A stretch of 58,704 nt of DNA, counting the filler, from Catajapyx aquilonaris (Eukaryota), in NCBI GenBank assembly GCA_000934665.2. It is 3 parts of 3 records of this genome, joined end to end, with 100 filler letters (N's around TTAATTAATTAA, not from the genome) between each part and the next. Parts side by side here need not be neighbours in the genome. Positions count along the whole stretch, not along the records: positions 39,199 to 58,704 come from KZ539541.1; 2 more parts are not named here. One strand, written 5' to 3'. This document shows, piece by piece, positions 33,392 through 58,704 of this stretch (position 1 is the first letter of the stretch; each line of letters begins with the position of its first letter). The notes under the pieces were generated by a model, which saw only the letters and a program-made list of their open reading frames with translations, was not told the origin of the DNA and made no database searches. Position numbers and translations under genes: made by a program.

Positions 33392-33424
33392 ATCCATCCT
33401 CTTCATCCAGACAACTAAACAAAC

Positions 33425-33950: not shown

Positions 33951-33966
33951 GGCCCTGAAAAGAGCC
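33951..33966 (-). terminator. Histone 3' stem-loop (H3 variant)
   Basis: GGCTCTTTTCAGGGCC-ACCA followed by CAGAGAGAGAG (HDE-like). Confidence 0.92.
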
Positions 33967-34024
33967 ATTTTTAAAAAGCTTCCGCCCGGCCTCGCGGCTT
34001 CAACTTCGACATTCCTCCAATAAA

Positions 34025-36289: not shown

Positions 36290-36305
36290 GGCCCTGAAAA
36301 GGGCC
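36290..36305 (-). terminator. Histone 3' stem-loop (H2B copy 2)
   Basis: GGCCCTTTTCAGGGCC-ACCAC. Confidence 0.92.
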
Positions 36306-36340
36306 GTTTGTTTCGTTGTCTGGTGGCGATGAGGATGGAT

Positions 36341-36712
36341 CTACTTGGAGGAGGTGTACTTGGTGACGGCCTTTGTCCCCTCTGACACGGCATGCTTGGC
36401 CAGCTCCCCTGGCAGGATGAGGCGGACGGCGGTCTGGACCTCCCGGGAAGTGATGGTGGACCTCTTGCTGTAGTGGGCCAGGCGGAAGGACTCTGACGCT
36501 ATGCGATCGAAGACGTCGTTGACGAAGCTGTTCATGATGGACATGGCCTTGGAGGACACCCCGGTGTCCGGGTGGACCTGCTTCAGAATCTTGTAGATGT
36601 ATATGGCGTAGCTCTCCTTCCTTTTGTGCTGCTTCTTCTTGTCCGTCTTGGAGATGGTCTTCTTCGCCTTCCCTACCTTCTCGGCGGCCTTTCCACTCAT
36701 CTTCGGCGACAT
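36341..36712 (-). CDS. H2B: Histone H2B, divergent (copy 2), 123 aa
   Basis: [12 protein letters not shown]...[21 protein letters not shown]...TKYTSSK. Confidence 0.97.
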
Positions 36713-36998
36713 CTTCACACGGAGCAACTGAGCTGATCGGGATACGAAACGATCGTAACGAGATCCGGATACTGAATGAGGGTTGCCGGGAATATGTGGC
36801 CGTTTTATAGCATGCAGAGGGTCCGCAACCGCGTCTGGCCGGGTGCTCCCATTGGCTCCACGAGGGCCAATCCGAGCGCGCCCTTGCTTAGAACCTTTTC
36901 CTCTATTTAAGGGGCACCCAAGCCCTGCCCACCTTTATTAGCTGCTGAGCGCCTGAGACTTCTAGACGTGTGGTTGTTCTGCACCGATCTTTTCAAAG

Positions 36999-37373
36999 AT
37001 GACTGGCCGTGGCAAGGGAGGCAAGACGAAGGCGAAGCCGCAGACCCGCTCCAGCCGAGCCGGCCTGACATTCCCTGTTGGCCGTGTCCATCGTCTCCTA
37101 CGCAAGGGCAACTACGCCTCTCGAGTCGGGTCTGGCGCCCCCATCTACCTGGCTGCCGTGCTGGAGTACCTGGCCGCCGAGGTGCTCGAACTGGCAGGCA
37201 ACGCGGCCCGTGACAACAAGAAGTCGAGGATCAACCCCCGCCATCTCCAGCTGGCCGTCAGGAACGACGAGGAGCTGAGCAAGGTCTTCTCGGGGGTGAC
37301 CATCGCCCAAGGCGGCGTGCTGCCAAACATCCAGGCCGTCCTCCTCCCGAAGAAGACCGAGAGGAAGGCTTAG
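36999..37373 (+). CDS. H2A: Histone H2A, divergent (copy 2)
   Basis: 124-aa ORF differing from copy 1 at only two residues. Stem-loop AGCCCTTTTCAGGGCT at 37416-37431. Confidence 0.97.
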
Positions 37374-38095
37374 ATTCACCCTCCACACATCTCGACCGCA
37401 CCCTTTAAACAAAACAGCCCTTTTCAGGGCTACCACTTTATTCACGTGAGAAGGCGAATAGAGCGAGTGCAAATAAAGTGCTTACATTGTATTGCTAAGG
37501 TTGTCCAATTTTAGCTAATGAAACTGCTAATCGAGATACTAAAAATTTGTGTTCCAGACTCTTCTACGGGCAAGTCGAATTTTCTGGTCACAATCAGCAT
37601 GCCTAATTGGCCATCTTTCGAGCAGAAATATATAATAAAGTTGACGTAATTCATGTCACACTGCAGAATAACAGCAGTAAATATTAGTAGACGCGCCAAC
37701 CCGATATAATTATGTAAACTACTGTATAATATAGTTTTGAAGCATCCCAAATAACTCCGAACCGATCCGAATAATGTGGATATGCACACCAATCAATATA
37801 TTTATTAGCTACTTACTGGAACAGTCCAAATGACAACGACCGACAACCCAAAAATTTCCATTCAAACCATATTATTCGCACTTCCTTGTTATAATAATTA
37901 TTATTGTAATGGGGATCGGGTGAATTGGCATTTTTATTAGCGCGCCCATTTTTTTCTGAATTGTTGCAGAGCTAATTGATGCTATTTGGTCCAAACTGTA
38001 TATCTCAACGTGATATGTGTGGTAGCCCTGAAAAGGGCTGTTTGTTTAAGGCTGGGGCTGGTGGTGGTCCTTCCCAAAAGGAAGTCTGAGGAGGA

Positions 38096-38563
<468 letters not shown>

Positions 38564-39198: not shown

Positions 39199-39230
39199 AC
39201 CCATCGAAACTATATCCACATAAGCATATA

Positions 39231-39695
39231 CCGTATTTACTCGCATATAAGACGCACTTTTTTCCGATTTTTGTAGTTCAAAAAGTAGGGTGCGTTTTAT
39301 ACGCGTGTGCGTCTTATACGGCAGGGCACAACGGGTGAAACCCGTGAGAAATCGTGAAAATCGTTTATTGAAAAATTTAAAAACATCGCACATTCGAATC
39401 AGTCATCGTCGCTCTCCTCGGCCGTCCACACACGTGCACAATTCCGGTATGACCTTGCCACCTATACGTTTCAGATGCGTAGCATTGTCCCATTTTCCAC
39501 TTGTCCCCACACGCACATGCATTGCACATGCATTGCACACGAGGTTGCTGCCGGCAGCTCGAGGCCAGTTCCCAAACTACGGCAATAAATCTGGGTGCGT
39601 CTTATATGAGTCAACAACCGATTTTTCACAATTTTTCGCCTCAAAACCGGGGTGCGTCTTATACGCGTGTGCGTCTTATATGCGAGTAAATACGG
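39231..39695. mobile_element. pogo/Tigger-like MITE
   Basis: TA-ccgtatttactcgcatataagacgcac / gtgcgtcttatatgcgagtaaatacgg-TA perfect TIRs with subterminal repeats. A decayed relative lies at ~20186-20315. Confidence 0.88.
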
Positions 39696-39699
39696 TACT

Positions 39700-39778
39700 C
39701 TGTCCGATCCGGGAATCGAACTCGGGACCTTGGAGGTGAAAGGCTGCGGCGCTAACCACTCCGCCACCGTGTCGCCCA
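39700..39778 (-). mobile_element. tRNA-derived SINE head
   Basis: The minus strand reads gggcgacacggtggcggagtggttagcg...gagttcgattcccgg: pol III A and B boxes, but no proper acceptor stem. Similar heads lie near 47960-48035 and 56590-56665. Confidence 0.6.
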
Positions 39779-39925
39779 GTAACAGATGACAGTATCATAA
39801 AGCCATACAGCATTATTACCTACACAAAGGGCAACTGGCTCCATCCCTCATGTTGCCCCGTCACTCAAATATGCCCGTATCAGCTATTATCAGCTATTAT
39901 TATTAGCCTTAATCATAGCCTACTG

Positions 39926-40076
39926 GCAAGGGGGTAATCACTCGACTGAAAAGTGTACACTGGAGTACCAAATTCAAGGAGTACCACGGAGTAATAAAGA
40001 GTGAGGTGCCTGAGGAGTACCAGGGAGTACCACTCCCAGGTGTACACCGGAGTACCGAAGTGATTACCCCCTTGCC
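39926..40076. mobile_element. Small TIR element filled with GAGTAC(C) tandem motifs
   Basis: ggcaagggggtaatcact / agtgattacccccttgcc inverted ends. A second family member lies at ~55795-55960. Confidence 0.65.
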
Positions 40077-40119
40077 TGCTGGATCCAGATCCAAAAGTCT
40101 TATATATGTTCATTTACAT

Positions 40120-40567
40120 AATGTCATCCCAGCCTATGCCATGGCGATCAACAATAATTCGCCCGGCCAGATCAGCGCGTTATCATTTCCGTGGATGAAC
40201 CTGTCTTCTCCCAATCATGGCCAGCTCCATGTGGCACTGTCCCGGTCTCGCAACCCAAGTCAGGTCAAAGTGTTCACTACTCCTACTGCTCAACACGGAA
40301 CATTGCTCTCCAACAACAGAGTGTTTGCACACAATGTTGTCCATCGGGAGGTTTTATGAAAACTTCTCTCACGTCCGATTCAGGACGTGTACAGTATGTC
40401 CATTGAGTCAATGCCACTCAATTTCTCAACCCCGTCTTACGACCAGCAGCTATCCAGCTATACTCTATTTCTTAGTTGTCACGCCGCGAGCCCTCTCATT
40501 CAATTTTTTCATTACCATTGTCTTCCTCATTGCAGGTTTTGCCAAATTTTGGCTACGGGTGCGCTAG
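40120..40567 (+). mobile_element. Helitron 3' remnant (PIF1-like helicase C-terminus + CTAG end)
   Basis: PAYAMAIN..SPGQ...HGQLHVALSRSR...NVVHREVL-stop resembles the RepHel motifs AFAMTINKSQGQ/HGQLYVALSR/NVVYREVL. Ends CTAG|T at 40564-40568. Confidence 0.8.
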
Positions 40568-41015
40568 TAATAATAATAATGATAATGATAATAATAACAA
40601 CAACAACAACAACATATAATTCAGCATTAATTCTGGCAAATTGACTTATGTCTGCCACTGCCTTGATTGTATAGGATTGACTCCCAGATGATTGGCTTGA
40701 ATGAGGTCGGGCAAGGACAGGGTACTTTGAAAGTGTGACAATAAAATAATCAGGATAACGTTGGGAATTTATTTAATATTCTAACAAATTTTAGTATATA
40801 ATAATATTTTGTATAATTTAAGATATTCGCTATTATATTGTCATTTTACTGTTATTAAAGTGGACTTGAAATTCTGACATGCCTATTTGTTTCATGTACC
40901 TTGACAGGCATTCCCTTTGCCACTTCATGTAACTTATGCCAAAGAATCATTCTCTTCAACTTATCACCTCCCCATACATTCCTCAGTTATAAGTAGATTA
41001 CTGTACAATAATGTA

Positions 41016-42524
41016 GGAGACTGGGGCACAGTGGACCACGGGGCTAGATAAAAGAATTGCAGGTGTAATTAGCCAAAGAGGCCTTACCACCTGTGGGCAA
41101 CAAACCGACAATGTCCGGCTCCCAGATCCATACAGTCTGGGGCCGGGGCATACGAAACGCTCCAAGTCAATATTGTCCCAAGGAAGAACCGGAGCCGAAG
41201 CCCCAGACCCCCGGAACCAGCATTAGCCCAAGCCCCCCTGGGCCAGCGCCCAGGGGGACCAAACCTCCTACCCACGCACACCAAAATCCCAAGAAACAAC
41301 CACGAACAATATTATGAACTACTCAAAGAAAAGAGAACCCTCTCAGGCCCCACAACCCCCCCTCAACTGCAAAAGACAGACAACCCCCCGCCCCCTCCCC
41401 CCAACAACTAATGTTCCAACAAATGTCCTCAACACTCCAATACTCTCCCAACAACTCCAATCGCAGCCGACGACATCAATCATGGATCGAGGACAGGAAC
41501 TTATCAGCCGCCAAACAAAAACGGCTAAGTGACGCCCAGTAAAACTGAACCAGGTCTGCCAGTGCGCACGGCCAATCCAGCCCCCCCTTCACCATCACCT
41601 GCAACAGAAGACGGGGGCTAGTGGACCTTTCCATTTTAAAAATCGAAAAAGCCGCCAATTTTTTTCATCTGGTACCTCGTGAAAGAAGTCACTGCCACGC
41701 TCCTGCCAACGTGGCTGGCAACGGCTAGCGATCAATCGATCGATAGATATCCAGCGAAATCGATTTGAAGATATGTGAAGTAAATTACTAACCCACAGTT
41801 TAAATGCCATTTCAGGCGTAGATGTTGGTCATGAGACTGATATAAAAATGTTGTGGAATAGTGCCGCCCTTTGTCCATGAATACCGGAAGTTTGGTAAGC
41901 CTAACTTGCAATCGAAGTTACAATCATAGCATTATGTCAGTTGCTGCTGTCCGGGGCACAGTGGTCCAGTCGTTTGCGGGGCACAGTGGTCCATGTATAC
42001 CACTGTGCCCCGAAATGCACACTGTGTCCCGAAATGAACAGCTGTAAAAAATGTGAGACAAATTATTTTAAAAATGCGAATTAGGTAGAAAAAAGGGCAA
42101 AACTGTGATTTTGACAAACCACCCTCCAAATGAACAACTGTAAAAGAAAATGTGAGGCAATGATTTTTAAAATGTGAATTAGGTAGAAAAAAGGGGCAAA
42201 ACTGTGATGTTGACACAGTCCTCAAAATGAACAGCTGTAAAAAAAATGTTAGGCAATGATAATAAACTTCTTGTGTGAATTAGGGGTCCCAATCACTTCC
42301 GGACCACTGTGCCCCACCTATCGGGGTACAGTGGACCATTTGCAGGGGGTCGCTTCTAATTTTTTTTAAAGCCAAAAGGATGGCACTGCCTGTGAATATA
42401 GTAGTGACTTATATTACCAAGGAGTATCTCCACCATGCCTGAAAATATTGGGTGTGTAGGTATAACAGGTAGGTATATAAAAATTCAAAGGTACAAAAGT
42501 GGTCCACTGTGCCCCGGTCTCCCC
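41016..42524. mobile_element. TA-flanked DNA transposon with GGGGCACAGTGG subterminal repeats
   Basis: ggagactggggcacagtggaccac / gtggtccactgtgccccggtctcccc termini, internal copies of the motif and a ~100-bp internal tandem duplication. Confidence 0.7.
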
Positions 42525-42657
42525 TACTAAATATTGCACGACTAAATAATGTATTTTTCTCTTATTTGTATCATATGAAGGAGCACTGCAGATTGGAACG
42601 ATGATTCTGGCTTACATTATGAATATCAAGCAGTGCAATTCTCTACCTGCACCATTC

Positions 42658-44399
42658 GTATCATGGGGTCTTTTTTGATCCAAATCTTACGAGAATTAAC
42701 AGAGTCAAGTAACTAATTAATCGAAGGCCAAATACTGTTCGGTATTCCCCAAACACATACAGTATTTGCATACTGGTTAATTTTCTTGAAATGGGGAAAT
42801 ATTCAGGGCCCTCAAAAACAGATATAATCATTGTGGAGTGTATCTGTTGTAGGGTACGTATTAGGTGGCACCAGGTACTTTTATCTATACGTCCGAAATT
42901 ATTAATTGTACGCCATTTTATGTAGAGCTCATCATTCGAGACGTTATACTCGTACATAGTAAGCATATTTGGAAGTTCCTAGTGAATTGTAAGTTGCTGT
43001 TCTGCTATCTATAATTATTGTACACATGCCAGTGTATTTGCAGTTTTTAATACCCAATCTAAGCATCTAACATACGATATATCGAATATACGATCGTATA
43101 TAAAGCCCCAATCCGAGGATATAGGATATAGGATGGAAAAGATATTGCACTTCCCGAGGTCGTAGAGCTCTGGTCCAAATTCCGTTGGATTCCTTGCCCC
43201 CGCGATATACATTGGCCAAAAATCCTCAAAATCCCAAAATTCCCAGCCGTTTTCGAGATGGCCAAAAGTCGACTTTTGCACACGCCACCTGGACCATCTG
43301 CTTGTCGTTAAGCCGGGAAAGAACAATGGCCCATCCACCCTCATCTCCGGAGACCTCTCAGCATACATATGGTTACACCCCGTCCCCCTGGCCCCACCCC
43401 ACTTTTCCTTTTTTCACCAGCCGTCAGCTACGGGCGCATTCGTGACGTCACGGGTTCTGTAAACGTATGGATTTCTGTAACCGGATGGATTACGGCGGAA
43501 TACGGGCACCGCGCCGAAGGCGCGCAGGTGGGGCGCACGGCGCAGCCCCACGGGGGGGTCCGGAGCCCCACCGGCTCGCAAAGCGAGTAGGTAAATAGGT
43601 CTGAGGATAAGGCTTCCTTTGCTCCGGCGAGTAGAGGGGACGTCCCTGGCGGGGTCGATAAGGTGCAAGGGAGGTGCCATACACGTCGGCTTGGCCAGGG
43701 CGTGCGGAGTAGTGGCTGGTGGCGAGGGGCGGGGGGGGGGGGGGCNNNNNNNNNNNNNNNNNNNNNNNNNNNNNNNNNNNNNNNNNNNNNNNNNNNNNNN
43801 NNNNNNNNNNNNNNNNNNNNNNNNNNNNNNNNNNNNNNNNNNNNNNNNNNNNNNNNNNNNNNNNGGGGGTGGGACTGGTTGTTTTTAGGTTTATTTTCAC
43901 GAGTTTTAATTATTAGTTCATATGTTGGGTTAGCTTGCGTCTCCCTTCATCGCTGACTACTCCTCATAGGGAAATGTCGTGTTGTTGATGTTGATGTTGA
44001 TGTTGTTGTATATTTGTGTATTTGTATTTTTGTATTTTACATGTCATTCAAAATTTAATCACACGTATTGGAAATTAAAATAATATCATCATCACGACAT
44101 TGAGGGGTAGTCAGCGATCAAGGGAGACGCAAGCTAACCCAACATAATTATAAACTAATAATTAAAACTTGTGAAAATAAAACTATAAACAACTCGTCCC
44201 ACCTCCCACCTCAGACGAGGGACATTGAATATTAAATTTAAATATTACACTATGCAATACGGTACTTCGCCAAACAAGCACACCCCCCCCCCACTCTACC
44301 TATTAAAACAATATAATTATTAAATATCACCTGGGGTCAAAAAAGACTCCGTGATACTACAGTAGTTACGTTGCTCAGATTCATGATACTACTTAAGGG
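42658..44399. mobile_element. Decayed piggyBac-like element with nested insertions
   Basis: Inverted gtatcatggggtcttttttga (42658) / tcaaaaaagactccgtgatac (~44337-44357), right end aaggg-TTAA. Contains a Helitron-like piece and a ~100-bp-arm inverted repeat (43868-44203). Confidence 0.45.
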
Positions 44400-44405
44400 T
44401 TAAAA

Positions 44406-45259
44406 TCTTCTCTATATCTATAAATAAGGAAGTTTGGATGTTTGTCCCTTATAGAAATCCAGGGGAAGGCCCCTACACCGCCTTAAATTAGCATATCGGG
44501 GGTTACTTTTTCCAAGGAATCTAACGCCGCATGTTTCAGCTTCCGAAAATGTACCTAACTCCCACAACACGCATATTCCTGCCTCAACAATTAGCTTACA
44601 TCAACAAAACAACAATAAATCAATTTGCATTCCCATGGAAATGCCTCTCTCTTTTTTTAGCTATTTACCTCCCTGCATCGTACCGCAGGGAGGGAACCTT
44701 TATTTCGTCTTGATGGAACCTTTTTGACGTAGCGCCCGGGCCCACGGGCAGGGTGACTGGGAGGGGATGTGCAAGGTGCAAGTGCAATTCTCAAACGGTA
44801 TATTTTGTGAACTCCCCCGGGTAGATTAGTCTGAGGAGATTCCACCCGAAACGAAGCCAGAGACGACCCAACTCTGCACGGGATGAAGGAGGGAACCCCG
44901 GGCTGGGATCGAACCCGACGTTCCCGCAGCGCCACTTTATATTACTCCTATATTTCCCATCATACATCTGTACGTACATTTCTAAAGTTATCCAGAGCAA
45001 ACAAAGGAACGAGGTGGGGGTGTGAAGCAGGGGTTGGGGGGGAGATGGGGTCAAGGGGTCAAAAATGCAGGGAAAAAAACACATGGCTGTGCAGTCTTTT
45101 CCTTGGCCAACTCCATCCGTATTCCTCCTTTTACACATCCAATCAGAATATCCGTGTCGACTGTATGCTATAAGACAAGCAGGTAATCTATCACAGATAT
45201 GTACCCTTATCTTTACCACCACCCCCAACATACCCGGGCAACGCCGGGTAACCTGCTAG
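44406..45259 (+). mobile_element. Complete non-autonomous Helitron
   Basis: A|TC 5' start (tcttctctatatctataaat), 3' hairpin cccgggcaacgccggg then CTAG|T, no TSD. Confidence 0.85.
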
Positions 45260-45264
45260 TAAAC

Positions 45265-45431
45265 AAATTATAATTACAAATTAAAATTACAAATTATAAT
45301 TACAAATTATAATTACAAATTATAATTACAAATTATAATTACAAATTATGATTACAAATTAAAATTACAAATTAAAATTACAAATTATAATTACAAATTA
45401 TAATTACAAATTAAAATTACTAATTACAAAT
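45265..45431. repeat. 13-bp AT-rich minisatellite (aattacaaattat)n
   Basis: About 12 tandem units immediately after the Helitron end. Confidence 0.9.
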
Positions 45432-46005
45432 CTTTAAAAAACTAAATATTGTATAACAATCCGAAGTACGCGTCAAATTGCCTACTGATGAATGACACAA
45501 TGGGGCCAAAACGTGATCATAATATATTCTCAGAAACTGACGCCATTTAATTTAAATTAATGATCTCAACATTTCCCCGAACAAAGACCTGAGAGCATCA
45601 CAACCCGAGAGTTGTCAATATGTTCGTCAACAATATTTTTGCATAATTACATTCACGACATAACTGGAAATTTTAAATGCTTCTGACATAATTTGCACTT
45701 TACGTAAATGTAAATTTCACATTAATTTTTAGTATAGTGTGGAAGCATGTCAATAAGTATTTTGCAATAAATCATGCATGAATCCTTGGATATAGGTACT
45801 GTACGTGTAAACATGATTTGGAATGGGACGACAGGAAGAAGCACATTCTCTAGTATACTGCGTAAAACACTCATCGTTGCAGATAATGAGAACTCACAAA
45901 GCATATCGACATGAAAAGTTAGAATACAAATGGCCCGTTTCCACCGGCATAATTTTTGAGCACAAAAAGAAAAGCACAAAAAGAAAAGCACAAAAATGGA
46001 ACACA

Positions 46006-46900
46006 GTCTGGACACAGTCTTGATGCATCCCATCGCCCAACTCATGCTCTTTCAGGTCGGGATCGAGTTCGACCAGGACTCGAGCTCGCTCAAGGTGATG
46101 GCGAACTGTCATTATTGCAATAACGGTAGCGCAAAAGTGGTGCATGTCGCTCAATATACGAGGGGTAAAGCCATACCCGATTTGTTCCCGGATTATTCAA
46201 CTAATATGAAAGGTAGGGTAATTCATGGTGCAAGGCCGTTTGACTTGTCCAAGGAAGACTTGCAATACATGGTGGACAATTCACTGCCAATGTTTGGTCT
46301 CTTTTTGTTCCTGCTTTTGGCAAGTGATGCCCGGTGATGCCCTTAATTTCGAATGGATTCTGGAAGGAGCGGTAGTAGATGATGGTAAGGCTCCAGATAT
46401 CTTGTTGGCTGATGGTAATTATACAGGCCCAACTGGTGAAATTATTAGGGGAAGAGCAGAGATTGGGAGCACTATTATAACACTGATAAGTCCAGTTGTT
46501 CAAATAATTTTGCCTCTCTATTACGCTCAGATGACGTTTTCCACCAGGATTTCAAGACCTAGTTACTCCTGGAATTCCGTATTGATGCCTTACACTCCGG
46601 AAATGTGGGTTTTGATATTCCTGGCCACTTTGGCAGGCAGCTTTGTCCTTTTCGGCCTGCTAAGAATAGAGAGCACTTTCCGCAACCCTTTTCCAGACAA
46701 GGGTCCGTCCTATTCCCTCTTCCTCTACTCGGCCAGATACCTGTTTTCCACCCTGATCGAGGAAAACCCCAACACCATCCCCCGAGGTGACCCCTCCAGA
46801 CTCTTCATCTCCTTCTGGTGGATCTATTCCCTGGTCATCATCATCGGATACAAAGCCTTGTACTTCGGCTTCTTGGCATCTCCACTGCAGGAGGATTTGC
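46006..46900 (+). pseudogene. Ionotropic receptor pseudogene (5'- and 3'-truncated, frameshifted)
   Basis: Homology to the IR at 49449 begins abruptly at gtctggacacagtc and ends at gaggatttgc. A 10-nt duplication (gtgatgcccg gtgatgccc, ~46324-46342) shifts the frame. Confidence 0.88.
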
Positions 46901-47214
46901 GCTGGCTACAAGGTGGCTATATTGGAAAAGGATCTTTGCGCAGTGATAAGAGATTGTATGAAGCTTAGCACAATTATGGGAATTTAGCAGTTAATTAGAT
47001 GGGTTTCCAAGCAATATTTTGCGTATAATCGTTCTTTGAACCCGTAAAATTCACCGCAACGTTTTTTATGATTCCCGAGTAGCCGCACAGAAATAGTCAT
47101 AGCTGTTATGCTATGCACGGCCTAGAGTACGGGAGCTGCGCATGGATATGGCTAGAGCGGCCTTTCAATGCGGTTGGAATGATATATGAGGCATAGGGCT
47201 AACATGACATTCAA

Positions 47215-47560
47215 CATGCCAAACAAAGTGTTTCTCTCAATCTCCCACTTCTTCATCAATGTTGGAAATATGCTTGGACTTTATAAAAATGGCTCTCACT
47301 TAGATGTGGCACAGGCATTGATTCCAATAATTCATGTACTCTTCTGTAGAACTTAGGCAAACACATGCAGGTAGGGTGATGTTACCCAGAGCTGGAGAAT
47401 GTTTGCTGTCATGGAGGACTTCCTGGTCACTCTCCCATGTTAAGTTATGTCCATTTAGGCATTCCATGGTAACTCTCAGCATGCTCTTTTCTTTTCTCTC
47501 AACTGGTTGGCCACACTGGAGGCACCTGCACAGTAACTCGTCCAGTTGCTTATCGTGAAC
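47215..47560 (-). mobile_element. Transposase relic, tentatively Kolobok-type
   Basis: LDELLCRCLQCG...SMLRVTMECLNGHNLTWES...ALGNITL and, in another frame, LSESHFYKVQ...KKWE. This resembles the CxxC...CxxxH region of Kolobok-like transposases (recalled, not searched). Confidence 0.4.
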
Positions 47561-49448
47561 GATATCGTAATATGAAATTATTCAGAGCGTCACTTAACTC
47601 AGGAGTTTCATATTAATCATATGAGGTATCATCTGGCGCACATTGACTAACAATGCTAATGTCAAGACTGGACTCTGTGGGTATAACACAAGGAAAATCA
47701 TGGATTTCAGTACTTGGCCATAGCGTAATGAAATATTGTTTTAAAATTAGGACTACCTTCAATGTATTATTTGCGGTAATAGTAGTACACATAATATATT
47801 AGGTACAAGAATTTCATGGTGATATTATTTTATAGAGCCTCATACATCACGTCACGTCACCACATGCTGTCGGCATCATGTAAAGACTGTATTCGTGTAT
47901 TAGTACTCCAATATTCCTGTTGGAATATTCACGCTGACAGACAACGGTGGCACAGAAGTCACCAACCTTCAGGTTCAAACCACAACTTTGGGTCAAGAGG
48001 CGAGCGCTGTAACCACCAGACCACCAGCGCCGGCAAGTAACAGTGCTGTGGTGATATGAGCAGATTACCTGTCCAGGGTAATAGGTAGCATGTCGCCCAC
48101 GGAAACCCCCTTCGAAATTGGCGCAAACCCATGACCCGACACCAGTACGGACCAAAAACGGCGTGGACCAAAGATGACTGAAGATTATCCGAGATTATCA
48201 TAATTTCTGCCAAGTCCCGGTTGGCGGCGCGTGCGGAGGGGGCAGACTGAGTCGGGCGGGCAGCTATCTTGCGCCAGATACGAATTGTCGAACTTTGATG
48301 GCTCGCCCTGGCCTTACCGTTCGTTTCTCAGGAAACCTGCTTATACCCTCGGAATCAGACTTTTTTGCCCGATTTTTAGAGCCCAACGTGTATTTTGAGT
48401 GGAGTGTCCCTTTAAGGACGACTGATTCTTTGCTGAAGTTATAAATAATATTCATATGACGTGAAACAAAGACGAACAATTTTAAATGTAACAAAGTAAT
48501 GTTACATTAGTGATTTTAAGATACTCACTACGTTAGTATGTAGGCTACTGATAATTACTCGTATTATGAAGTAACATTTCTTATGAACTCCCCATTACTC
48601 TTTTCACACGTCATAATATGGAAATAACTCTTTCTATATACTCCTATCACCTTCCCATACAAGTATTGCCTCGTCAGATGTACGTATGTTTGCCTAATTT
48701 TCCACCGACAAAATGTTCCCCATTTTTTCTTTCACGTGGAATAGTACGCCAGATTGGTAATATTGCGGTGTACTGGTTTGTATGGCGGGAATAAATCATT
48801 GTGCATATCTATGACATTATAATAGGTTCGAAGTGTATAACTATAAAAATAATACTTAGTCTTAACCGCATTGCCAAGCAAGGCATTTGCGGGTCCTTGT
48901 GCATAAGCACAAACATTACTTGGAGGGAGAGAAAAGAGGAGAGAAAGAGACGGTAAAAACACTCCCTGTTTCGGGGTTCTAGGTTATACAAACTAGAGAG
49001 TGCGTGACAGCGAAGTAGGTTGTAGGCATTTCAACTGCACTGCTACGTAGTGCACGTATGAAAGATGTATCCTACAATAGTGAAGTGCATGTAGGTTAAG
49101 TGAGCAATTTCTTGGCATGAAAAGTCGGAAGGGAAAACATCATTATCATGTCAATGTCAGCAATTGTAACTCACAAATGGACAGATATAACAACCCCTAA
49201 TCATGCATCACATATTTTAATATTCTGCAAGCCGAAAATCCGTAACATTGCATCTTAATACGACCCTGTTAGTGGTAATTAGTTTCGGAGCACAGGAAAG
49301 GACAGGAAACGTGCCTATTTGTCCATACATAATTTCTTAATGAGTTCGATGTAGACTTCGCAAGGCTGGCAAAATATATTGACAGCTCAATATTTCGGGC
49401 AATTGATATAAAAGTTCGGGGAATCAATAGGAGAAGCTCAGTTCCAGC

Positions 49449-51404
49449 ATGGAAGCGATGGGTGTAGCAGTTGTTGTTCTCTGTGCAGTGGCTTCCCTTA
49501 CATATGGTCAAGTGCAGGTCATATCATCTTCACCCTGGTCGGAAGAGGAAGAGCTGGTGACTTCCCTGGTTCAAGATGCCCATAGATCAAGACCCGAGTG
49601 TCTCCTGGTGTTGTGCGGCGACTGGTTGGTGTTCCCCTCTTCGTTTAACCGGCTGATCAACAATGGATCGGAGGAAGTGGCGGTGGTGAGGTGGGACGGG
49701 ACACCAGTGGACGCCAGTGGACAGTACTGGTTCTCCTGGCTGCACAGACCGGAGGCCAGGAGACTGGACCCCTGCGCCACCTTCCTCTTCGCCTTCGGGA
49801 CACTGGACACCTTGTCTCCTCTGGTGGTCCACGCGGCCACTCTTCACCTCATGGACACCGGAAGGGACAGGTTCCTCTTCTGGCCCAGGGACGGAGGTCT
49901 GGACACAGTCTTGATGCATCCCATCGCCCTACTCATGCTCTTTCAGGTCGGGATCCAGTTCGACCAGGACTCTAGCTCGCTCAAGGTGATGGCGAACTGT
50001 CACTATTGCGATCAAGGTAATCCAAAAGTGGTGCACGCTGGCCAATACTCCAGAGGTAGTGACATCATCAAATTGTTCCCAGATTATTCTACTAATCTGC
50101 ATGGTAATGTAATTAACGGCACTGGCCCGATTGACATATCCAAAAAGGAGTTGCAGTACATGTTGGACAATTCATTGCCAATGTTTGGAGTACTTATTTT
50201 TCTGCTTTTGATAAGTGACGCACTGAATTTTGACTGGTATCTGGAAGAAGCGCAATTAGATGACGGTGAGATTCCTGAGATATTGTTGCCCGATGGTAAT
50301 TATACTGGTCAAACTGGTGCCATTATCCGGAGAAGGTCGGAGATAGCCCTCCTACCCTCAACCTCGGTAAATTCTGTTGTGCAAGTAATTCTCCCTGTTT
50401 ATTACATGCAGATAACCTTTTCCACCAGGGCATCGAGGCCAAGTTACTCGTGGAATTCCGTCTTGATGCCATACACTCCTGAAATGTGGGTTTTGATATT
50501 CCTGGCCACTCTTGTTGGCAGCTTTGTCCTTTTCGCCCTGCTAAGAATAGAGAGCACTTTCCGCAACCCTTTTCCAGACAAGGGTCCGTCCTATTCCCTC
50601 TTCCTCTACTCGGCCAGATACCTGTTTTCCACCCTGATCGAGGAAAACCCCAACACCATCCCCCGAGGTGACCCCTCCAGACTCTTCATCTCCTTCTGGT
50701 GGATCTATTCCCTGGTCATCATCATCGGGTACGAAGCCTTGTACTTTGGCTTCTTAGCATCTCCACTGCAGGAGGATTTGCCAGAATCGTTTCAAGAACT
50801 CAACAGTAGGCGTCAAAAATGGCAATGGGGAACTATGGAAGCGGTTAAGCCTTATTTAGCAGGTGTTTTCTCCGACAATGATTTAGAATTCTTTAAACCC
50901 ATTGCTCGGGACATGATTGATCAACCCGACTTTACCGCATGTGTTCGAAAATCAATAGCTGAATATTATGCCTGCATAGGTCCATTGGACGTACTGCTAT
51001 CAATATTTGGCCTATATGTAGACAAGGCGGGAAATATTCCATTGACGACTGCCAATGAAGCAAGTATGTTAGTGTTAGCTGGATACATTTTAGACAAACA
51101 CAGCAAGTTTGGTCCAATTATTGACAGAATGGCATTTTATTACTTAGATTCAGGACTTATGGCTTATCATGGCAAGTACTTGGAGTATACATGCCATCTA
51201 ATAGGACTCAAGGAAGCGAGGAAGTTGGATCGATCTTACCAGCACTCAATGGCTTTGAAATTTGACCAACTGAGAGGTGTGATGATTTTTCTTGCCACCT
51301 GTTGTTGGGGTTGTGGTATGCTCTTGCTCATTAGTGAAGTATTGTATGTAAGAAATATGCAAAATGTATTACAGAATAACAATAATAAGAGCGTAACCTC
51401 GTAA
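49449..51404 (+). CDS. Divergent ionotropic receptor, intronless, 651 aa
   Basis: Signal peptide, S1 lobe, LMPYTPEMWV TM1, pore region, RLFISFWW...GYEALYFGFL TM2, S2 lobe, and TM3 LKFDQLRG...ISE. Confidence 0.92.
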   Translation: MEAMGVAVVVLCAVASLTYGQVQVISSSPWSEEEELVTSLVQDAHRSRPECLLVLCGDWLVFPSSFNRLINNGSEEVAVVRWDGTPVDASGQYWFSWLHRPEARRLDPCATFLFAFGTLDTLSPLVVHAATLHLMDTGRDRFLFWPRDGGLDTVLMHPIALLMLFQVGIQFDQDSSSLKVMANCHYCDQGNPKVVHAGQYSRGSDIIKLFPDYSTNLHGNVINGTGPIDISKKELQYMLDNSLPMFGVLIFLLLISDALNFDWYLEEAQLDDGEIPEILLPDGNYTGQTGAIIRRRSEIALLPSTSVNSVVQVILPVYYMQITFSTRASRPSYSWNSVLMPYTPEMWVLIFLATLVGSFVLFALLRIESTFRNPFPDKGPSYSLFLYSARYLFSTLIEENPNTIPRGDPSRLFISFWWIYSLVIIIGYEALYFGFLASPLQEDLPESFQELNSRRQKWQWGTMEAVKPYLAGVFSDNDLEFFKPIARDMIDQPDFTACVRKSIAEYYACIGPLDVLLSIFGLYVDKAGNIPLTTANEASMLVLAGYILDKHSKFGPIIDRMAFYYLDSGLMAYHGKYLEYTCHLIGLKEARKLDRSYQHSMALKFDQLRGVMIFLATCCWGCGMLLLISEVLYVRNMQNVLQNNNNKSVTS

Positions 51405-52808
51405 AAGAGATAATCTATTACATTTATATAACTTATGTAGTAGTAGACATTGTACTGTGTGTAATGTGTATGCATTGTATTCCCATTTCATAAATACTTA
51501 CAATAGAGAATATTGTCCGAGGAATTGTTACATTATTTCTTTCGGAAATTCTACAGTATCAATTTTATACTTATCGTAGCCTACACAATAGTCATGGAGA
51601 TTCTGAGAATTTCTGTTGACTTGATGTGAAAAGGAGCTACTTCGGTTGCAATCAAAGGGTGCTGATGTCATTGTAATACTAATATCATAGATGACCTCGG
51701 AGATGACCTGGGAAGGATCGGAAAGAGTGAATTGGTTAGAAAATCCTTCACGTCATCGGAATTCAAAATGTCGCTGTGAAAAGGTTTGGAATATTCTCTA
51801 ACTCTTCCTCTCGAGGCGCAGGCAAGATCAACATGCACAAATTAGTTCAGAAAGCACGTTCTTAACCTTCAGGGTATAAATCATGAATCATTAAAAATTG
51901 CTACTGACTTTCACTTTTTCATTCATATTGTAATACAAAGCACTATTACATGTTAGATACGCAGTGAATGGAACAACAAACCTAGATTCCTGGAACTGAT
52001 CTCGTTACAGGTGATGACATTCATTAATATTAATTCATTCATTAATGATGCAAGGACGCTGGAATAATTTAGTGGTCTTATCGACGATCATCTGACAGGT
52101 GGACAGCAATCCACATTTTGAAGGCAGCACCTCACACACCTACAGTTCCGCATGACAGTCACGCTACTATTCCTCTCTAGTAAATGTCCACACCAGCATG
52201 ATGGCCACATGATGGGGCATAAAAGACCTTCAAATGGCACGGACATGACAGTACATCACTGTACAAGCCACGATATGTCTGAATAACTTTTTTGACATTT
52301 GAGAAGTAAAGAATCAAATTCTCAGCAAGTGAAATGTCATCCTTACTATTCAGAGCCACACGTGGATCACTCCTGCGCGATGGGTTGCATGACAATCAGG
52401 ATGAATGATTTCTCGTGTCAAACTGACCAAACAACCATCGAAAGCTTGGACAGACCATAAATAACAGCTGACAAGTAAGAGAGACACCTTCATGAGCATT
52501 ATTAATGTCACGTGTTTCCATAAGTAGTGCTACGTCTGAATCGGATCACGTTAGGTAGCCTAATGACCTCCCCGTCAATAGATTCGTCACCAGAATGTCA
52601 TTTATCCCCTTCACGATCCATTAGGGTACATTAAACCCATTAAACTGTGGATCAATACGTCATAATGTCCCAGCTCTGGATGTTAAACTCTTACGAACTT
52701 TGGAGGCACACGTGGCAGTTGCAGGGGATTCTCTTCTGTGTTTTTGGACGGAAGAGAAGTGTCAAATAGCGGTGACATACACGATCTGCCACTTGGATTG
52801 GGCAGGTA

Positions 52809-54349
52809 ATGTTCAGGGAAGTGTCGAATAGAGTGATTCAGATGGAGGAAGGGAAGGAGCCAGAAGAAGACAATGCATTTTGGGAAGTGTTGAGACCAGT
52901 GGCCATCTTGTCAGTGGTCGGAGGAATCGCTCCTTTTCCTTGGCCCAAGAAAGAGGAGGATTTGAAAGGGAAGTGGTACAGACGGTGGCCAACAATGGTT
53001 CACTTACTTTTACTTGTCACGTACGTAGCTGTACTCAGTGTTGATCCGTTGGATTACTGGACCAGTGCCAATGCAGATAGTCCGACGGGACATGTTACGG
53101 AACTAATTTTGAATGTCGTTACGCTAAGTGTCCCTTGGATTAATTTCATCCTTGCCCAAATGAAGGTCTCCAAGATTTGGAAACTGATCCTCCGCTTCTC
53201 AAATCAGGATGTGTCAAGTCATAAACGAAAGCTGCGGAAGTGTTCTGTGCTTTTAGTTGCATCTTGTTTTTTGTTTCCTTTGATAATTATTTCTTATCTA
53301 ATAATCAATAACGCACTTGAAGGGTTGTTACTTGAGCCGTACTCCTTGTTTTTAATATTCTTGTTTTGGCACTGTTATTTCTTACTGTTCGTCGTTCCTA
53401 CTCAGCTAATGTTCTTAGTTCTTGTTCACAGGTCTCGCCTACAGTACTTTAACCACAAAATTATACAAATATGTAATTCCCTCCTTATAAATACAACCTC
53501 CCACCAGTATAATGATGACACGGTTAGGGAAACTAGCCGTTTCTCTGACCTTTTTCATGAATTGTGCGCCATAGTTAACATTATGGACAATATTTATGGA
53601 ATATTCCTTATCAACACATTCTTAGCATTCGTCATTTGGATTACAAGTTCTCTCTTCTATTTACTTCTGTATCCAATTGGTACACCCCCCATTGTGTTGG
53701 TATTCCAATTCATTGGAATTTCCTCAATTGCATGTAGTGCTGGTGCACTCGCCAGTACTCTGGGATCCATTCACAGGCAGGTGAATATTGACGAGATCAT
53801 AATAATTATGATGTAGTACTTTCCGATGCAATATTGTTCAGCTGAGATTAACGACAATTAATTTGCATTGTGTGGTTAACACCTGTATTCCAGAGCACAA
53901 CGTCCTTACCCGACCTCATCAACGCGTATCGTCAGGTTATAAACCCTCGCATCAAAGCAAACGTAAGTTAATTAGCTTTCATGATATTTTATAGGCTACT
54001 TCTTAAGCACCAGACATTACGAGTCATTAAGAGAAACCCCATTTTCTGGAGCATCATTTCCGTTCAGATGAAGTCACTGATCAGGAGGATGATGGGTCCT
54101 CCCATGGAGATAACTGCTGCCAACTATTTCACAATCAATCGAAGTCTATTGACCTCTGTGAGTTGGGCTTCACATGTGTTTGTTGCCATCAGTGTTTCAA
54201 TATGTCATGTTTCGTTCACTTTCCAGATAACAGGTGCTGTGACCACATATCTTATAGTCCTGGCACAATTCAAAGGATCTGAACAATATGAAATATGGAA
54301 TAACGCAACAGACTTAGTGATTGCATCGACTACAACTGAGGGAACATGA
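52809..54349 (+). CDS. Gustatory receptor (7TM chemoreceptor), ~417 aa
   Basis: Exons 52809-53780, 53894-53962, 54068-54157 and 54227-54349: a long first exon plus three phase-0 C-terminal introns. ITAANYFTINRSLL and the TTYLIVLAQF (TYhhhhhQF) signature. Confidence 0.93.
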
Positions 54350-55689
54350 GTTAATTGCAAAATACTGTATACATGCTAATTTTGAGTCTCAAAAGTCTGC
54401 ATGTCATTCTCCATAACGAACTACGCCTATATTAAAAATGTCTTCACATTATTAATAATAACAATTATAGCAGTTACCGTGCTCTAGAGACCAAATCGTT
54501 CCTGGGCAAAAATTATCCTCTATAGTGCCATTCAATAGGTTATTGAACACCTCCTGTACAATATCATGATGCATCGCATCGATTCCTAAGTAGAGTTCCA
54601 CTCACATTGTCAGTTTTGACGGGTCACGCAATCATATATACAGGGTTTCATTGAACCGAGCAGTCAGACCTGTACCCGTGGCTTAATTGTCATCAGAGTA
54701 TCATTACTTTTGTTATGATGTTATGCTAATCATTGTAAATATATTGTGAAATAAATTACTGGGCTATAAAATGTGTTGTTGGCAACATGGCAGCTGTTCA
54801 TTGCAAGTTTGCAACTTATATTGCAAATGAGGGGTCTGAGATAAAAAAATTCGGTACTGCTGCATCATGGGGTACATCCAGGAAAAATTGAAGCAACACA
54901 GAAGTACTGTATTACAATAATATTGCAAATACAGTAGCATGAGCCTGACACCATGGCCTTGTGGACATAAATTAAGCATTGCAACTGACACTGAGTCTAA
55001 CATTATGCTGCAAAAATTCTTGTGAGACGTTTATGTGGCCCAATAACGCAACATATGGCCGTAAGTGTCATGGAAATATAATGCCAGTTAGGATTGCCCA
55101 ATAAGATATCTGCTGCTGATAAATAAACAAGCGTCTCATGGGACTATGGGAGCAATATGGGAGCATTCTTATCTGGCACTCCCACATGGCACTTCATTTT
55201 CATGCTGCAAAAGCATATGGCCCTTGTATGGCTCCTTGTATTTGAAAATAAACTCAGCCTATTGTTAACTTGACACTGGACAGAAATTGTGGTCGTACGC
55301 AGTACATACCTCAAAGTGAAGGACCAGGGCGGCAGCCGCAGGATCTGATTCTGGTGTGCCTTAAAAGATATGGATTGCTATAGCCCACATATATAGTTGT
55401 ACTGTCAATCCCCCCATAGAGGGTGTCTCAACTTTTTTGTCTGAACAGTTATTAGAAATATTGCACTAAGCTGCTATTTTGTAAGCAGTGTATGCCACTT
55501 CACCTGAAGATTCGCAGGTAATATTCCCCATTCCTCCAGCAAACCAGTTGCAAGTCACTGCTTACAAAGTAGCAGCTTATAGTGCAATATTTCTGATAAC
55601 TGTTCGGACAAAAAATTGAGACACCCAGTATACTTGTACTGTCAATAACTTGCACATTGGCAAATATGCTGTACATACCGACTTGTAAT

Positions 55690-56145
55690 GGGCCATCATC
55701 ATCAAATGAATTTTCCTGCGATGCCCCTGCCTGGCCTATCATGCCTAAAATCTCTGAAGAGACGGTACTCGTAGCCTTCGAGAAGGTATGCAACGAGGTG
55801 GTACTCACTCGACTGTCAAGTGTACACCAGAGTACCAAATTCAAGGAGTACCAAGAAGTACCTGGGAGTACCTAAGGAGTACCTATAAGGAGTACCGAAT
55901 AGTACCAAAGAGTACCACTGCAGGAGTACACCGGAGTACCGAAGTGAGTACCCACCAGTTAGGTACAACTCCCTCTTGTCTGCAGCGGACTGCTTCTTAC
56001 CTTTTCTTTTTTTTTTCCAGGCATTCATATGCAGACCTGCGCTGCTTCCAGGTCCTCTTGAGTTGAACTCCCCTTCTACCTTTCTCCATGTGTCTTCCTT
56101 CATTCTGTTATTAACAGCATCAGTCATCTTGTTTTCCAGCATCGA
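55690..56145 (-). mobile_element. Myb/SANT-like DNA-binding ORF relic (PIF/Harbinger ORF2-type), interrupted by a GAGTAC element
   Basis: LENKMTDAVNNRMKEDTWRKVEGEFN...KRELYLTGG, then the insertion, then EILGMIG...ENSFDDDG. Confidence 0.6.
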
Positions 56146-57354
56146 ACGGTGGTCACTTCCTTATAGAGTTCCAGGCCCTAACAAGCTGTGCGGAGTGACA
56201 GACAACCCACGTGGACAACCTGTGCCTAGCACCGAACACTGGGCAGCGCCATCTTGTTCTGACGTCACGCTTATGACGTCCTCGACTAGCGGCCAATTCG
56301 TGAACTCGTAGCATCAGCGGGAATTATGAATGTTTCCCAGCTCAACTTTTCCACTACTTTTTCGAGAGCGGGTGCAACTCAGTGGAACTCCCTGTTGTCC
56401 AGATGTCATGATTGTGTTGGCACCATAAGATGATGTCACTCATACTACTTATTTTTGTGTTTGTAAAATAAGTTCCAGATGTGACAATTTTTTATTCACC
56501 TTAATCATGATGGTAATCGTAGCCACGCCATTAGTCTACCATCTGCGCCACCACTAAGCCTGGATGACCGTGTGAGTTCACAGAAAAACCACGGTCAGCC
56601 CCGGGAATAGAACCCGCAGGACACATCCCGATTAGCAGTCGGACGCTAACCACTCCATCGACCTGCTTCGGTTGACTGTTCGGCAGATAAGGATATGAGG
56701 TAGATGTTTTCTTAATGAATATCTGCCAAAGCAAGAACAGAAGGGCTTTTCTTTGCAGCTTCTGGCTGTTTGAAGTGTTTATTTGCCTACAATGTGCAGC
56801 ACTCCCGATTATTCAGGTACGGATCCGTGCATCGTGAAAAAATTAAATTAATAATTACAGGCCAACTAAATGTCAATATATCTCGCTGAATATGACATAA
56901 TTTTCCTACAAGACAAAATAAAAATGTATGGTCAGTTTTATTATTTTAATTAACCTTAGGGAAATCAGCGTACACTACGTAGAGTTCATTAAAGACCCGT
57001 GAATAGCTGATGTACCTAGGACCATTTTCTGATTACCCTTGATTTCCGATTATCCGGCGACACTTGTGGATTCATTAGCCAGGACAATATGTATTGGGAT
57101 GGCAGTGTATTTCATTTTTGTTAATTTTCTTCTTTTCATGTCCGAGGTATCAAGCGAATAAGCAATGCAGAAATTGTTTAAAATATTGTATTTTGGAGAC
57201 TGTTTATTCTTAATGGATACATAAAAATTCAATTTTCCCAGCTTCAAAATGTGGAACTTTCAGCATTTATCATTTCCACTCTTCATATGTTTTGTGAAAT
57301 TCGTAAAGGTACATAATTTCACTGGCGTATGCTGTTAGTAATCCGCAGTGCATT

Positions 57355-58704
57355 TTAAAGATATTTCACACGTATAATTTCTCCCATGAACAAGATAATT
57401 CCACAAACCCAACAACATGTGGCCAGAAAACAGATAATTCCCTTCATTTGGTCAAAATTCAAAGCCATTGATTGCTGGTACGATATGTCCAGCTTCCTTG
57501 CATCTCTAAGGCCCAACAATAAACAGGTGTACTCCAAGTACTTGTCATATTTGTCCATCAGACCTGAGTCGATGTAATAAACTGCCATTCGGTCAATAAT
57601 TGGACCCAGCTTGCTGTGTTTGTCCAATATATATCCAACGAACAATAATAAACCAGCATGATTACGTACGACCACTGGAATATTTCCCGCTTTGTCGATG
57701 TATTGCGCCCCGATTGCGAGCAATATATCCGATGGAGCTATGCAGGCAAAATTCTCGTCTATTGATTTGCGAACACATGTACTGAAGTCGGGTTGATCGT
57801 TCATGCCCCGAGATAAGTGTTTATAATATTCCACATCGTCATCTGAGAAAACAGCGTCAATATATTGCTTACAAAGGTCAAATGTTCCCCATTCCCAGTA
57901 TCTACGCCTATTGCCGAGTTCTTGATATGAGTCTGGCAAATCCTCCTGAACTGGAGACGCCAAGAAGCCAAAGTACAAGGCTTCGTATCCGATGATGATG
58001 ACCAGGGAATAGATCCACCAGAAGGAGATGAAGAGTCTGGAGGGGTCACCTCGGGGGATGGTGTTGGGGTTTTCCTCGATCAGGGTGGAAAACAGGTATC
58101 TGGCCGAGTAGAGGAAGAGGGAATAGGACGGACCCTTGTCTGGAAAAGGGTTGCGGAAAGTGCTCTCTATTCTTAGCAGGGCGAAGAGGACAAAGCTGCA
58201 CATTAGAGTGGCCAACAATATCAAAACCCACATTTCAGGAGTGTAAGGCATCAATGCGGAATACCACGAGTAACTGGGCCTCGATGTCCTGGTAGAAAAG
58301 GTTATCTGCATATAATAAAGTGGCATAATTACGTTTACAACAGGGCTATGTAATGCTATTGCAGTGATTCCTATCTCGGCCTCTCTCCGAATGATGTCAC
58401 CTGTTGGACCAGAATAATTGCCGTCTGGCAACAAAATATCCGGTATTTCACCGTCATCTAGTTGCGTTGCTTCAAGATGCCAATCAAAATTTAGTACATC
58501 ACTTACCACAAGTAGGAAGATAAAAACCCCAAACATTGGCACTGAATTATCCACCATGAATCGCAGCTCTTCCTTGTCCAGATCAAACGGGGCCGTCGCA
58601 TTAATTGTCTTACCGTGCAGATTCGTGGAATAATCAATGAACAATTCGGGTATTTTACTACCCTGCTTGTACTGAGCGACATGCACCACTTTTGGCCCAC
58701 CGTG
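57355..58704 (-). CDS. Divergent ionotropic receptor, 5'-truncated by window end
   Basis: Open frame colinear with the 49449 IR from KVVH through TM3 to a stop at 57355; no introns in the visible part. Confidence 0.92.
   Translation of the reverse strand, partial: HGGPKVVHVAQYKQGSKIPELFIDYSTNLHGKTINATAPFDLDKEELRFMVDNSVPMFGVFIFLLVVSDVLNFDWHLEATQLDDGEIPDILLPDGNYSGPTGDIIRREAEIGITAIALHSPVVNVIMPLYYMQITFSTRTSRPSYSWYSALMPYTPEMWVLILLATLMCSFVLFALLRIESTFRNPFPDKGPSYSLFLYSARYLFSTLIEENPNTIPRGDPSRLFISFWWIYSLVIIIGYEALYFGFLASPVQEDLPDSYQELGNRRRYWEWGTFDLCKQYIDAVFSDDDVEYYKHLSRGMNDQPDFSTCVRKSIDENFACIAPSDILLAIGAQYIDKAGNIPVVVRNHAGLLLFVGYILDKHSKLGPIIDRMAVYYIDSGLMDKYDKYLEYTCLLLGLRDARKLDISYQQSMALNFDQMKGIICFLATCCWVCGIILFMGEIIRVKYL

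Follow-up and report, generated by a model that had tools for sequence, protein, structure and literature searches.

Near-identical amino-terminal and pore intervals in divergent ionotropic receptor paralogues of Catajapyx aquilonaris and the probable role of gene conversion

How can three chemoreceptor paralogues with diverged ligand-binding lobes share a pore-encoding segment without a single nucleotide difference, and is the pore the part of these genes that is held constant? The question is raised by three gene copies (A, B and C) in a 58,704-nt stretch of Catajapyx aquilonaris DNA, referred to here as the window, in which stretches of N link three separate contigs. Copies A, B and C are all located on contig C3989 (KZ539541.1; window positions 39199–58704). 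A sequence-only reading of the window had reported an identical block of ~190 bp, and this was recovered with 0 differences over 191 nt and with the peptide given for it encoded; the full three-way identical run is 192 nt (50537–50728, 46656–46847 and 57989–58180). As also reported, the S1 and S2 flanks of the three copies carry many silent and coding differences, and the block is richer in C/G than the lobes (block GC 0.53; GC3 0.75 in the pore of subfamily G1 against 0.44 in S1 and S2). A second, N-terminal patch noted in the same reading does match between 46006–46111 and 49897–50002, with 3 differences in 106 nt; it is the tail of a 411-nt block at 49599–50009, termed the N-block below, which far more copies share than the pore block.

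Three receptor copies on one contig

The features of the three copies are as follows, G1 being the largest subfamily by pore type.

49407–49443, +: putative TATA-like box (49407–49413) and TCAGTT initiator-like motif (49438–49443), directly before the copy B ATG (from sequence positions)
49449–51404, +: copy B, intact, intronless divergent ionotropic receptor (IR) gene, 651 aa (ORF; PF00060; AlphaFold2 model)
49449–49598, +: variable signal-peptide and first-helix region, with the graded, mosaic 5′ edge of the N-block (pS 0.59–0.14 over codons 1–60; mosaic haplotypes)
49599–50009, +: N-block, 411 nt homogenised family-wide, core of the small amino-terminal domain (consensus distances; GC3 0.81; model secondary structure)
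49614–49943, +: near-invariant core of the N-block, copy B
50097–50453, +: S1 lobe of the ligand-binding domain (LBD), diverged between paralogues (LBD start near residue 217–220 by structural alignment)
50454–50536, +: region of the M1 helix, a partly homogenised halo on the 5′ side of the pore block (dS 0.27 in G1; model helix 344–371)
50537–50728, +: pore block of copy B, covering the M1 end, cytoplasmic loop, re-entrant M2 helix, pore loop and most of M3 (three-way identity; kainate receptor alignment; model helices 384–396 and 408–437)
50729–50792, +: end of M3, with a degenerate gate motif, and linker from M3 to S2, a 3′ halo that is partly homogenised (dS 0.27 in G1; GYEALYFGF against SYTANLAAF)
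50796–51209, +: S2 lobe of the LBD, diverged (dS 0.83 and dN/dS 0.25 over codons 450–600 in G1; LBD end near residue 587)
51267–51344, +: M4 helix, not homogenised (dS 0.68 over codons 601–630 in G1)
46006–46900, +: copy A, truncated, frameshifted gene fragment (B-like only across this interval; 10-nt insertion near 46324)
46006–46111, +: N-block 3′ tail kept in copy A (3 differences in 106 nt against B)
46656–46847, +: pore block of copy A (0 differences)
57355–58704, −: copy C, open frame of 449 aa, its 5′ part including the N-block removed by the contig end (ORF; PF00060)
57989–58180, −: pore block of copy C (0 differences)

Copy A is cut at both ends. The two motifs 5′ of the copy B ATG are what we presume to be TATA-like and initiator-like elements of predicted function; the TATA-like box is aligned upstream in all 29 full-length copies of the family.

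Copies B, C and A match PF00060 above the cut-off (37.6 bits against 30.8 for copy B). A profile built from 26 family members retrieved 238 PDB sequences at E up to 0.01, and all 60 of those displayed are iGluRs. An AlphaFold2 model of copy B from a 130-sequence alignment reached pLDDT 91.8 and matches iGluR chains; a model from the alignment of the 26 family members alone was unusable (pLDDT 36). Residues 220–587 of the former superpose on the GluR2 LBD as the best match (Z 18.0, rmsd 3.3, 232 residues aligned), and copy B is accordingly modelled with the S1-M1-M2(pore)-M3-S2-M4 fold and a clamshell LBD. An alpha/beta domain of ~175 residues precedes the LBD in the model, and the alignment of full-length iGluR chains begins at model residue 28. 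This short amino-terminal domain (ATD), compared within the full-length model rather than as a separately folded domain, would correspond to a single R2-type lobe. When the family profile is aligned to kainate receptors, the S1 arginine position, which we take to be the glutamate-binding one, is without arginine in the family, and the SYTANLAAF gate motif aligns to GYEALYFGF. Clusters of look-alike sequences are mostly arthropod, and the closest named proteins, IRs from springtail and crab, are distant. A word-indexed homologue search with copy B scored 8000 candidates of 358–1140 residues and gave no match at E up to 0.001. On sequence and predicted structure, A, B and C are classed as divergent, tuning-type IRs.

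Extent of homogenisation in the family

A first 26-mer from the pore block has 44 exact matches in the genome and its reversed control 0, so the match is not one of chance. A second pore 26-mer gave 66 matches at up to 3 mismatches (39 exact) and an N-terminal 26-mer gave 46 at up to 1 mismatch, each with 0 for the reversed control. In total 89 loci were examined (L001–L088 and copy A). A long uninterrupted frame is present in 59, which were codon-aligned (29 full length and 30 partial, nearly all of the latter cut by contig ends); the 30 broken or fragmentary loci were kept out of the codon alignment and checked separately. The 59 loci form 57 clusters at 5 % distance over S1 and S2 and are thus paralogues, not alleles. 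Several contigs carry 2–4 copies, most contigs being only 2–40 kb.

The main feature of the family is an N-block that is near-invariant over all subfamilies. The proposal that the pore is the constant module therefore holds within one subfamily (31 of the 59 loci), but across the family as a whole it is the amino-terminal domain that stays constant. Among the full genes, 27 of 29 are 0–6 nt from the 411-nt consensus, with L042 differing by 16 and L088 by 37. Family-wide pS is 0.000–0.013 over codons 76–165 against 0.57–0.76 in S1/S2 windows; dS in the N core is 0.000 in G1 (29 genes), and silent sites are invariant across the 330 nt of this core. Subfamilies lie 0.6–1.5 % apart in the N-block, yet 15–35 % in the pore and 37–43 % in S1. 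Rare variants in the N core comprise 1 synonymous to 12 non-synonymous changes, a ratio near the 3:10 that neutrality predicts. At the block edges diversity climbs from 0.01–0.04 to >0.2 within ~10–30 codons.

By pore type, the 59 loci comprise G1 (31 genes), G2 (12), two more types of 5 and 3 genes, and 8 genes outside these groups. For G1, dS and dN were computed by counting methods on 29 of the 31 genes, two escaped copies being left out. The test proposed with the sequence-only reading, dS and GC3 per domain, returned values that are far from uniform: dS is 0.032 in the G1 pore against 1.03 in S1 (codons 200–335; dN/dS 0.21) and 0.83 in S2 (dN/dS 0.25), with 0.27 in M1 and 0.68 in M4, which is not homogenised, and GC3 reaches 0.81 (N-block) and 0.75 (G1 pore), whereas the lobes have 0.43–0.45. 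Homogenisation is weaker in the G2–G4 pores, where GC3 (0.46–0.48) shows no rise relative to the lobes. The G2 lobes have dN/dS of 0.50–0.57, and one short, hand-picked G2 window with few sites gives 1.83. In an AU test, a single LBD clade made up of the G1-pore carriers was not rejected (p 0.34; 58 rows, with L016 omitted as too short), thus transfer of the pore between subfamilies is unsupported.

A second IR family in this genome contains an intron and has ~38 % amino-acid identity to the first in the amino-terminal domain. It carries an N-block of its own sequence at the same place, with third-position differences of 0–0.01 over ~90 codons against 0.11–0.31 in S1, and mostly 0.8–0.9 GC3. 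These values are from the exon-1 frames of 13 of 21 loci, four more-diverged loci having been excluded by choice and another four dropped by the frame filter. A 27-mer of this block has 24 genome matches (20 exact). In the pore exon of this family (exon 2), no identical block was seen among the 7 frames compared. The N-blocks of the two families have ~20 nt in common, which encode the conserved YWFSWL in codons that end in G/C. A trio out of 39 other intact IRs, L152/L154/L158, has the same N pattern (L152 and L158 differ by 0.05 in N and 0.32 in S1). Deeper pairs of unrelated IRs of the same genome are as diverged in the N region as in S1, ~0.4 each, therefore the amino-terminal domain is not intrinsically ultra-conserved. 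In a gustatory receptor control of the 12 best loci, third-position differences are 0.15–0.17 over the first 40 codons against 0.31–0.44 elsewhere, with identical runs of 70–84 nt between several pairs; this is a weak patch, unlike the IR blocks.

Gene conversion and competing explanations

At the N-block edges, 276 of 903 shared-site pairs have all four gametes (27 genes) and haplotypes are unrelated to LBD group; signal-peptide regions are visibly mosaic. Both escaped copies, L042 and L088, are intact, and most of the departures of their pores from the consensus are silent (10 and 12 silent codon changes, respectively), with changes toward A/T outnumbering the reverse by 13:1 and 13:5. This can be read as decay of the escaped copies or as a gain of G/C in the converting pool, and either links high GC to homogenisation. 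Of the broken loci, which are undated, 6 of 30 match the entire 330-nt N core and 4 of 30 an entire 186-nt pore with zero differences, and most others that cover a block differ from it by 1–3 nt. Distances in S1 and S2 agree with each other (Mantel r 0.81, n=29). Promoter and signal types correlate poorly with LBD groups (Mantel r 0.14 against S1). L055, L082, L029 and L052/L086 combine a promoter type with a distant LBD, pairings in which assembly joins across the N-block may be gap-filled and mis-joins could mimic swaps. Mosaic edges, AT-ward decay and the N-block of the second family support repeated, GC-biased non-allelic gene conversion. The recurrent, region-restricted and GC-biased conversion put forward from the three copies finds good support in the dS contrast, GC3, the decay of escaped copies, four-gamete mosaics, read depth and the second family.

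We consider it likely that conversion acts in two intervals whose limits are set by divergence and purifying selection. A family of single-exon tuning IRs, old and expanded, would have undergone repeated non-allelic conversion limited to these intervals, the ATD core being exchanged family-wide and the M2-pore-M3 interval inside one subfamily. Such events, which we infer from the observed pattern, would erase new mutations and favour G/C, leaving both blocks uniform and GC3-rich, and tract ends that vary would give graded, mosaic edges. S1 and S2 may be too diverged for easy recombination, and under purifying selection on the LBD any tracts entering it would probably be rare and removed. The converted intervals, ATD and pore, may be the parts in which paralogues are functionally interchangeable, a reading that draws on part of the account of insect IR complexes (10.64898/2026.09.30.755715). 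As a counterpoint, selection setting the boundaries has left no direct sign (dN/dS 0.21–0.57, with M4 escaped).

An artefact of assembly, with similar yet distinct segments collapsed or gap-filled with a consensus, has some points in its favour: contigs are short, a contig end in the N-block or shortly behind it is where many assembled copies start, and gap-filled N-block joins could overstate identity and mispair promoter with LBD. Contig breaks at the N-block are, however, also expected of a true repeat. Contigs from public reads were mapped to gene B (3 of 4 same-sample runs and one run from another study). Exact read-derived pore contigs of 142–172 nt have a depth of 1022–1498 (~30x unique pieces, which have 16–72) and an exact 148-nt N-block contig has 1733 (~50x), read depth not being equal to copy number. 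Read contigs drop rare variants and the runs are probably from the assembly's own sample, thus not an independent sampling. Both blocks nevertheless occur in read-derived contigs at ~30–50x unique depth, so assembler collapse does not explain them; additionally, the copies carry private and shared variants, and a single other-study contig (depth 2.4) connects the N-block with the beginning of S1 in paralogue L041. We regard the artefact as extremely improbable. Purifying selection at the nucleotide level, through RNA structure or a regulatory element within the coding blocks, would account for silent sites invariant over 330 nt, but is very unlikely given that folding shows no excess over codon-preserving shuffles (z −1.3 and −1.2; −1.7 for the S2 control) and that pairing between N-block and pore was looked for and none found. 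The silent pore codon changes are tolerated in the intact L042 and L088, the second family holds a different sequence invariant at the same place, and blocks are kept in broken copies. Similarly unlikely is a recent expansion of young duplicates that imported S1/S2 cassettes from an older reservoir. Some close pairs do differ more in one lobe (L031/L032: S1 0.16, S2 0.04), however promoters, signal peptides, M4 and tails are deeply diverged as well, and the agreement of S1 and S2 distances is expected of old lineages overwritten only in the blocks.

A neutral variant, which shares the probability of the conversion reading, is a more serious matter: conversion takes place within limits set by history, in that the slowest-evolving intervals remained similar and kept recombining and the rest drifted away, with no selection for uniformity or for pocket diversity. 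Among 34 other IRs of the genome, median identity is highest in M2-M3 (0.57–0.59), followed by parts of the ATD (0.41–0.43), S1 (0.29–0.40) and S2 (0.30–0.34); as M2-M3 is thus the most and the ATD a moderately constrained region, this variant can explain where conversion persists. The lobes have dN/dS <1, M4, isolated behind S2, escaped, and broken copies are homogenised too, all of which speak for it. Set against these points, constraint on the N region is no more than moderate, yet at least three separate lineages have homogenised this very interval, and its homogenisation persists across subfamilies whose pores have already escaped. We give this variant somewhat less than an even chance. 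The adaptive interpretation offered in the sequence-only reading, a constant assembly module with diversifying specificity, is conjectural: LBD dN/dS is 0.21–0.25, M4 is not homogenised (dS 0.68), and the neutral variant fits equally. Selection may keep the assembly module constant, or diversify ligand specificity, and if conversion is accepted the chances that selection positively favours a constant module are about evenly balanced.

Comparison with known systems and implications

The closest parallels are found in protocadherins. Fugu protocadherin exons are described as having >99 % identity over part of the exon, with a boundary, elevated GC3 and converted sequence that is specific to subgroups (PMC1852091), and regional conversion in zebrafish and mammal protocadherins was reported by Noonan et al., as summarised in PMC3966226. 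Likewise, near-identity here includes silent sites, is confined to one region of otherwise diverged paralogues with defined boundaries, and is accompanied by raised GC3 (not in the G2–G4 pores); the converted sequence also varies by paralogue group, pore types being up to 35 % apart and the N-block of the second family sharing ~38 % identity. Unlike protocadherins, the genes encode a chemoreceptor channel rather than an adhesion protein and are without shared constant exons. Two intervals of different reach are involved (the ATD family-wide, the pore subfamily-wide), copies occur in both orientations, and the silent contrast is extreme (dS 0.000 against ~1). A balance of conversion and selection has been proposed for the RH genes (RHCE/RHD, Innan model) as well as for protocadherins, according to the relevant part of the review by Ohta (PMC3966226). 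As in that account of RHCE/RHD, divergence lasts where selection or distance blocks conversion, and polymorphisms are shared where conversion goes on. RHCE and RHD are, however, two genes, and here at least 57 distinct genes are involved, with selection on the diverged part being presumed.

Expansions of divergent or tuning IRs in arthropods are described as mostly intronless, lineage-specific and clustered, with many pseudogenes (PMC6938034, PMC5850775, as far as consulted), and the first family is similarly intronless with broken copies. The usual model for IRs in the same sources is birth-and-death turnover. The word 'conversion' is absent from the main text of PMC6938034, and in Drosophila conversion affected few IR orthologue groups with minimal effect, in the portion of PMC4122928 that deals with it. 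Domain-restricted conversion in IRs was not found in literature searched by titles and abstract openings, with subscription journals little covered and supplements outside the search. The family is best explained as a known mechanism in a gene family for which we found no report of it, and as an unusually large and clean case.

In cryo-EM structures of insect IR complexes, the tuning subunit has a single-lobe ATD, a clamshell LBD, M1-M2-M3-M4 and a degenerate SYTANLAAF (bioRxiv preprint 10.64898/2026.09.30.755715, in part). The tuning ATD touches the co-receptor ATD and varies by co-receptor class, further specificity contacts lie on the LBD, and ATD and pore face the co-receptor and the channel axis, according to the same part of that source. 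By analogy, these ATD contacts make it plausible that the N-block encodes a co-receptor interface. The LBD, which is described as carrying specificity contacts in those complexes, is not homogenised here.

If the conversion reading is right, at least 57 distinct genes would undergo concerted evolution of two protein modules while their ligand-binding lobes evolve independently, in contrast to the birth-and-death turnover with little conversion by which arthropod chemoreceptors are usually modelled (PMC5850775, PMC4122928, for the portions consulted). Module-wise conversion would bias trees built from whole genes, gene counts, the mapping of reads and the assembly, in which many contigs break at the N-block. 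The intervals may also serve as a natural map of the IR parts that are interchangeable between paralogues, one which points to the poorly understood ATD of tuning IRs, and could provide a clean within-gene test bed for GC-biased conversion.

A broader proposal can be made for arthropod IR expansions, in which conversion would act as a genetic 'constant region', selection would lock the family to one co-receptor-facing ATD surface, and the N-block would form a hub of recombination through which LBDs exchange promoters and signal peptides, reshuffling where a given specificity is expressed. The low promoter–S1 correlation (Mantel r 0.14), the three homogenised lineages and a stretch of the ATD in porcelain crab are compatible with this proposal, which we nonetheless hold to be doubtful. 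Tandem IRs of the porcelain crab have a near-invariant ATD stretch, with 0–7 % differences over ~60 residues against 15–64 % further along (10 sequences, at the protein level only), and this may be a lead to the same process. In C. aquilonaris, family copies are found in both orientations, and several are on contigs that also carry gustatory receptor genes.

Drift, fragments and patchwork among the IR copies

The copies with the most-drifted N-block, the homogenised stretch in the amino-terminal domain (ATD), include loci L088 (on contig C694, 76 kb) and L067 (on C589, 82 kb), each of which is a single pattern match on a long contig. These drifted, lone copies hint that the proposed conversion needs proximity; L068, on a 58-kb contig, still has 99.7% identity. 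At the protein level, the tandem IRs of the crab Petrolisthes (P0011, P0164 and P0155-P0161) have a near-invariant stretch in common in the final part of the ATD.

At L083:957-1093 and L036:2224-2360, and also near C5039:4080-4259, 137 nt of the N-block stand alone in non-coding DNA. This piece has 3 differences from the consensus and has been duplicated together with its flanks; it is possibly a templated insertion. The S1 lobe has been deleted in L034 (C2784) and in the second copy at L070 (C1817:30500-33100), and in both the pore or M3 region adjoins the N-block almost directly.

L021 (C3394), a broken copy with 92% identity to the intact gene B, differs from it in a patchwork pattern, with 0-4 differences per 50 nt in most windows and islands of 8-18 differences per 50 nt located in S1 and S2. 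It looks like a recent duplicate carrying lobe-internal conversion tracts.

A distant IR and inverted repeats

A more distant IR, intron-containing and with ~33% identity across the N-block region, is found on a separate contig (C3988), and the element in its intron is bounded by terminal inverted repeats of 42 nt, exact. This element is MITE-like, and the other inverted-repeat pairs in the window are probably non-autonomous transposons.

27284-29872 (+), intron-containing IR
28484-28706, 223-nt element in the intron of this IR, its terminal inverted repeats long and perfect
1052-1598, 4677-5417 and 16806-17528, inverted-repeat pairs, 120-270 nt, 82-98% alike

Gustatory receptor and other genes

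52776-54350 (+), gustatory-receptor gene (PF08395), with copy B of the IR on one side and copy C on the other
32375-38506, histone genes H2A, H2B and H3 in two sets, H2B and H3 proteins diverged
20553-22304 (-), gene rich in proline/glutamine
25478-26476 (+), sugar-transporter gene (PF00083)

For the gustatory-receptor gene, the 508 candidates in the genome include 126 scored relatives; several relatives share contigs with IR family members, which suggests that the two kinds of gene form mixed clusters. Many N-tail residues differ between the H3 at 34025-34435 (-) and that at 38096-38506 (-). The proline/glutamine-rich gene presumably resembles Sec24.
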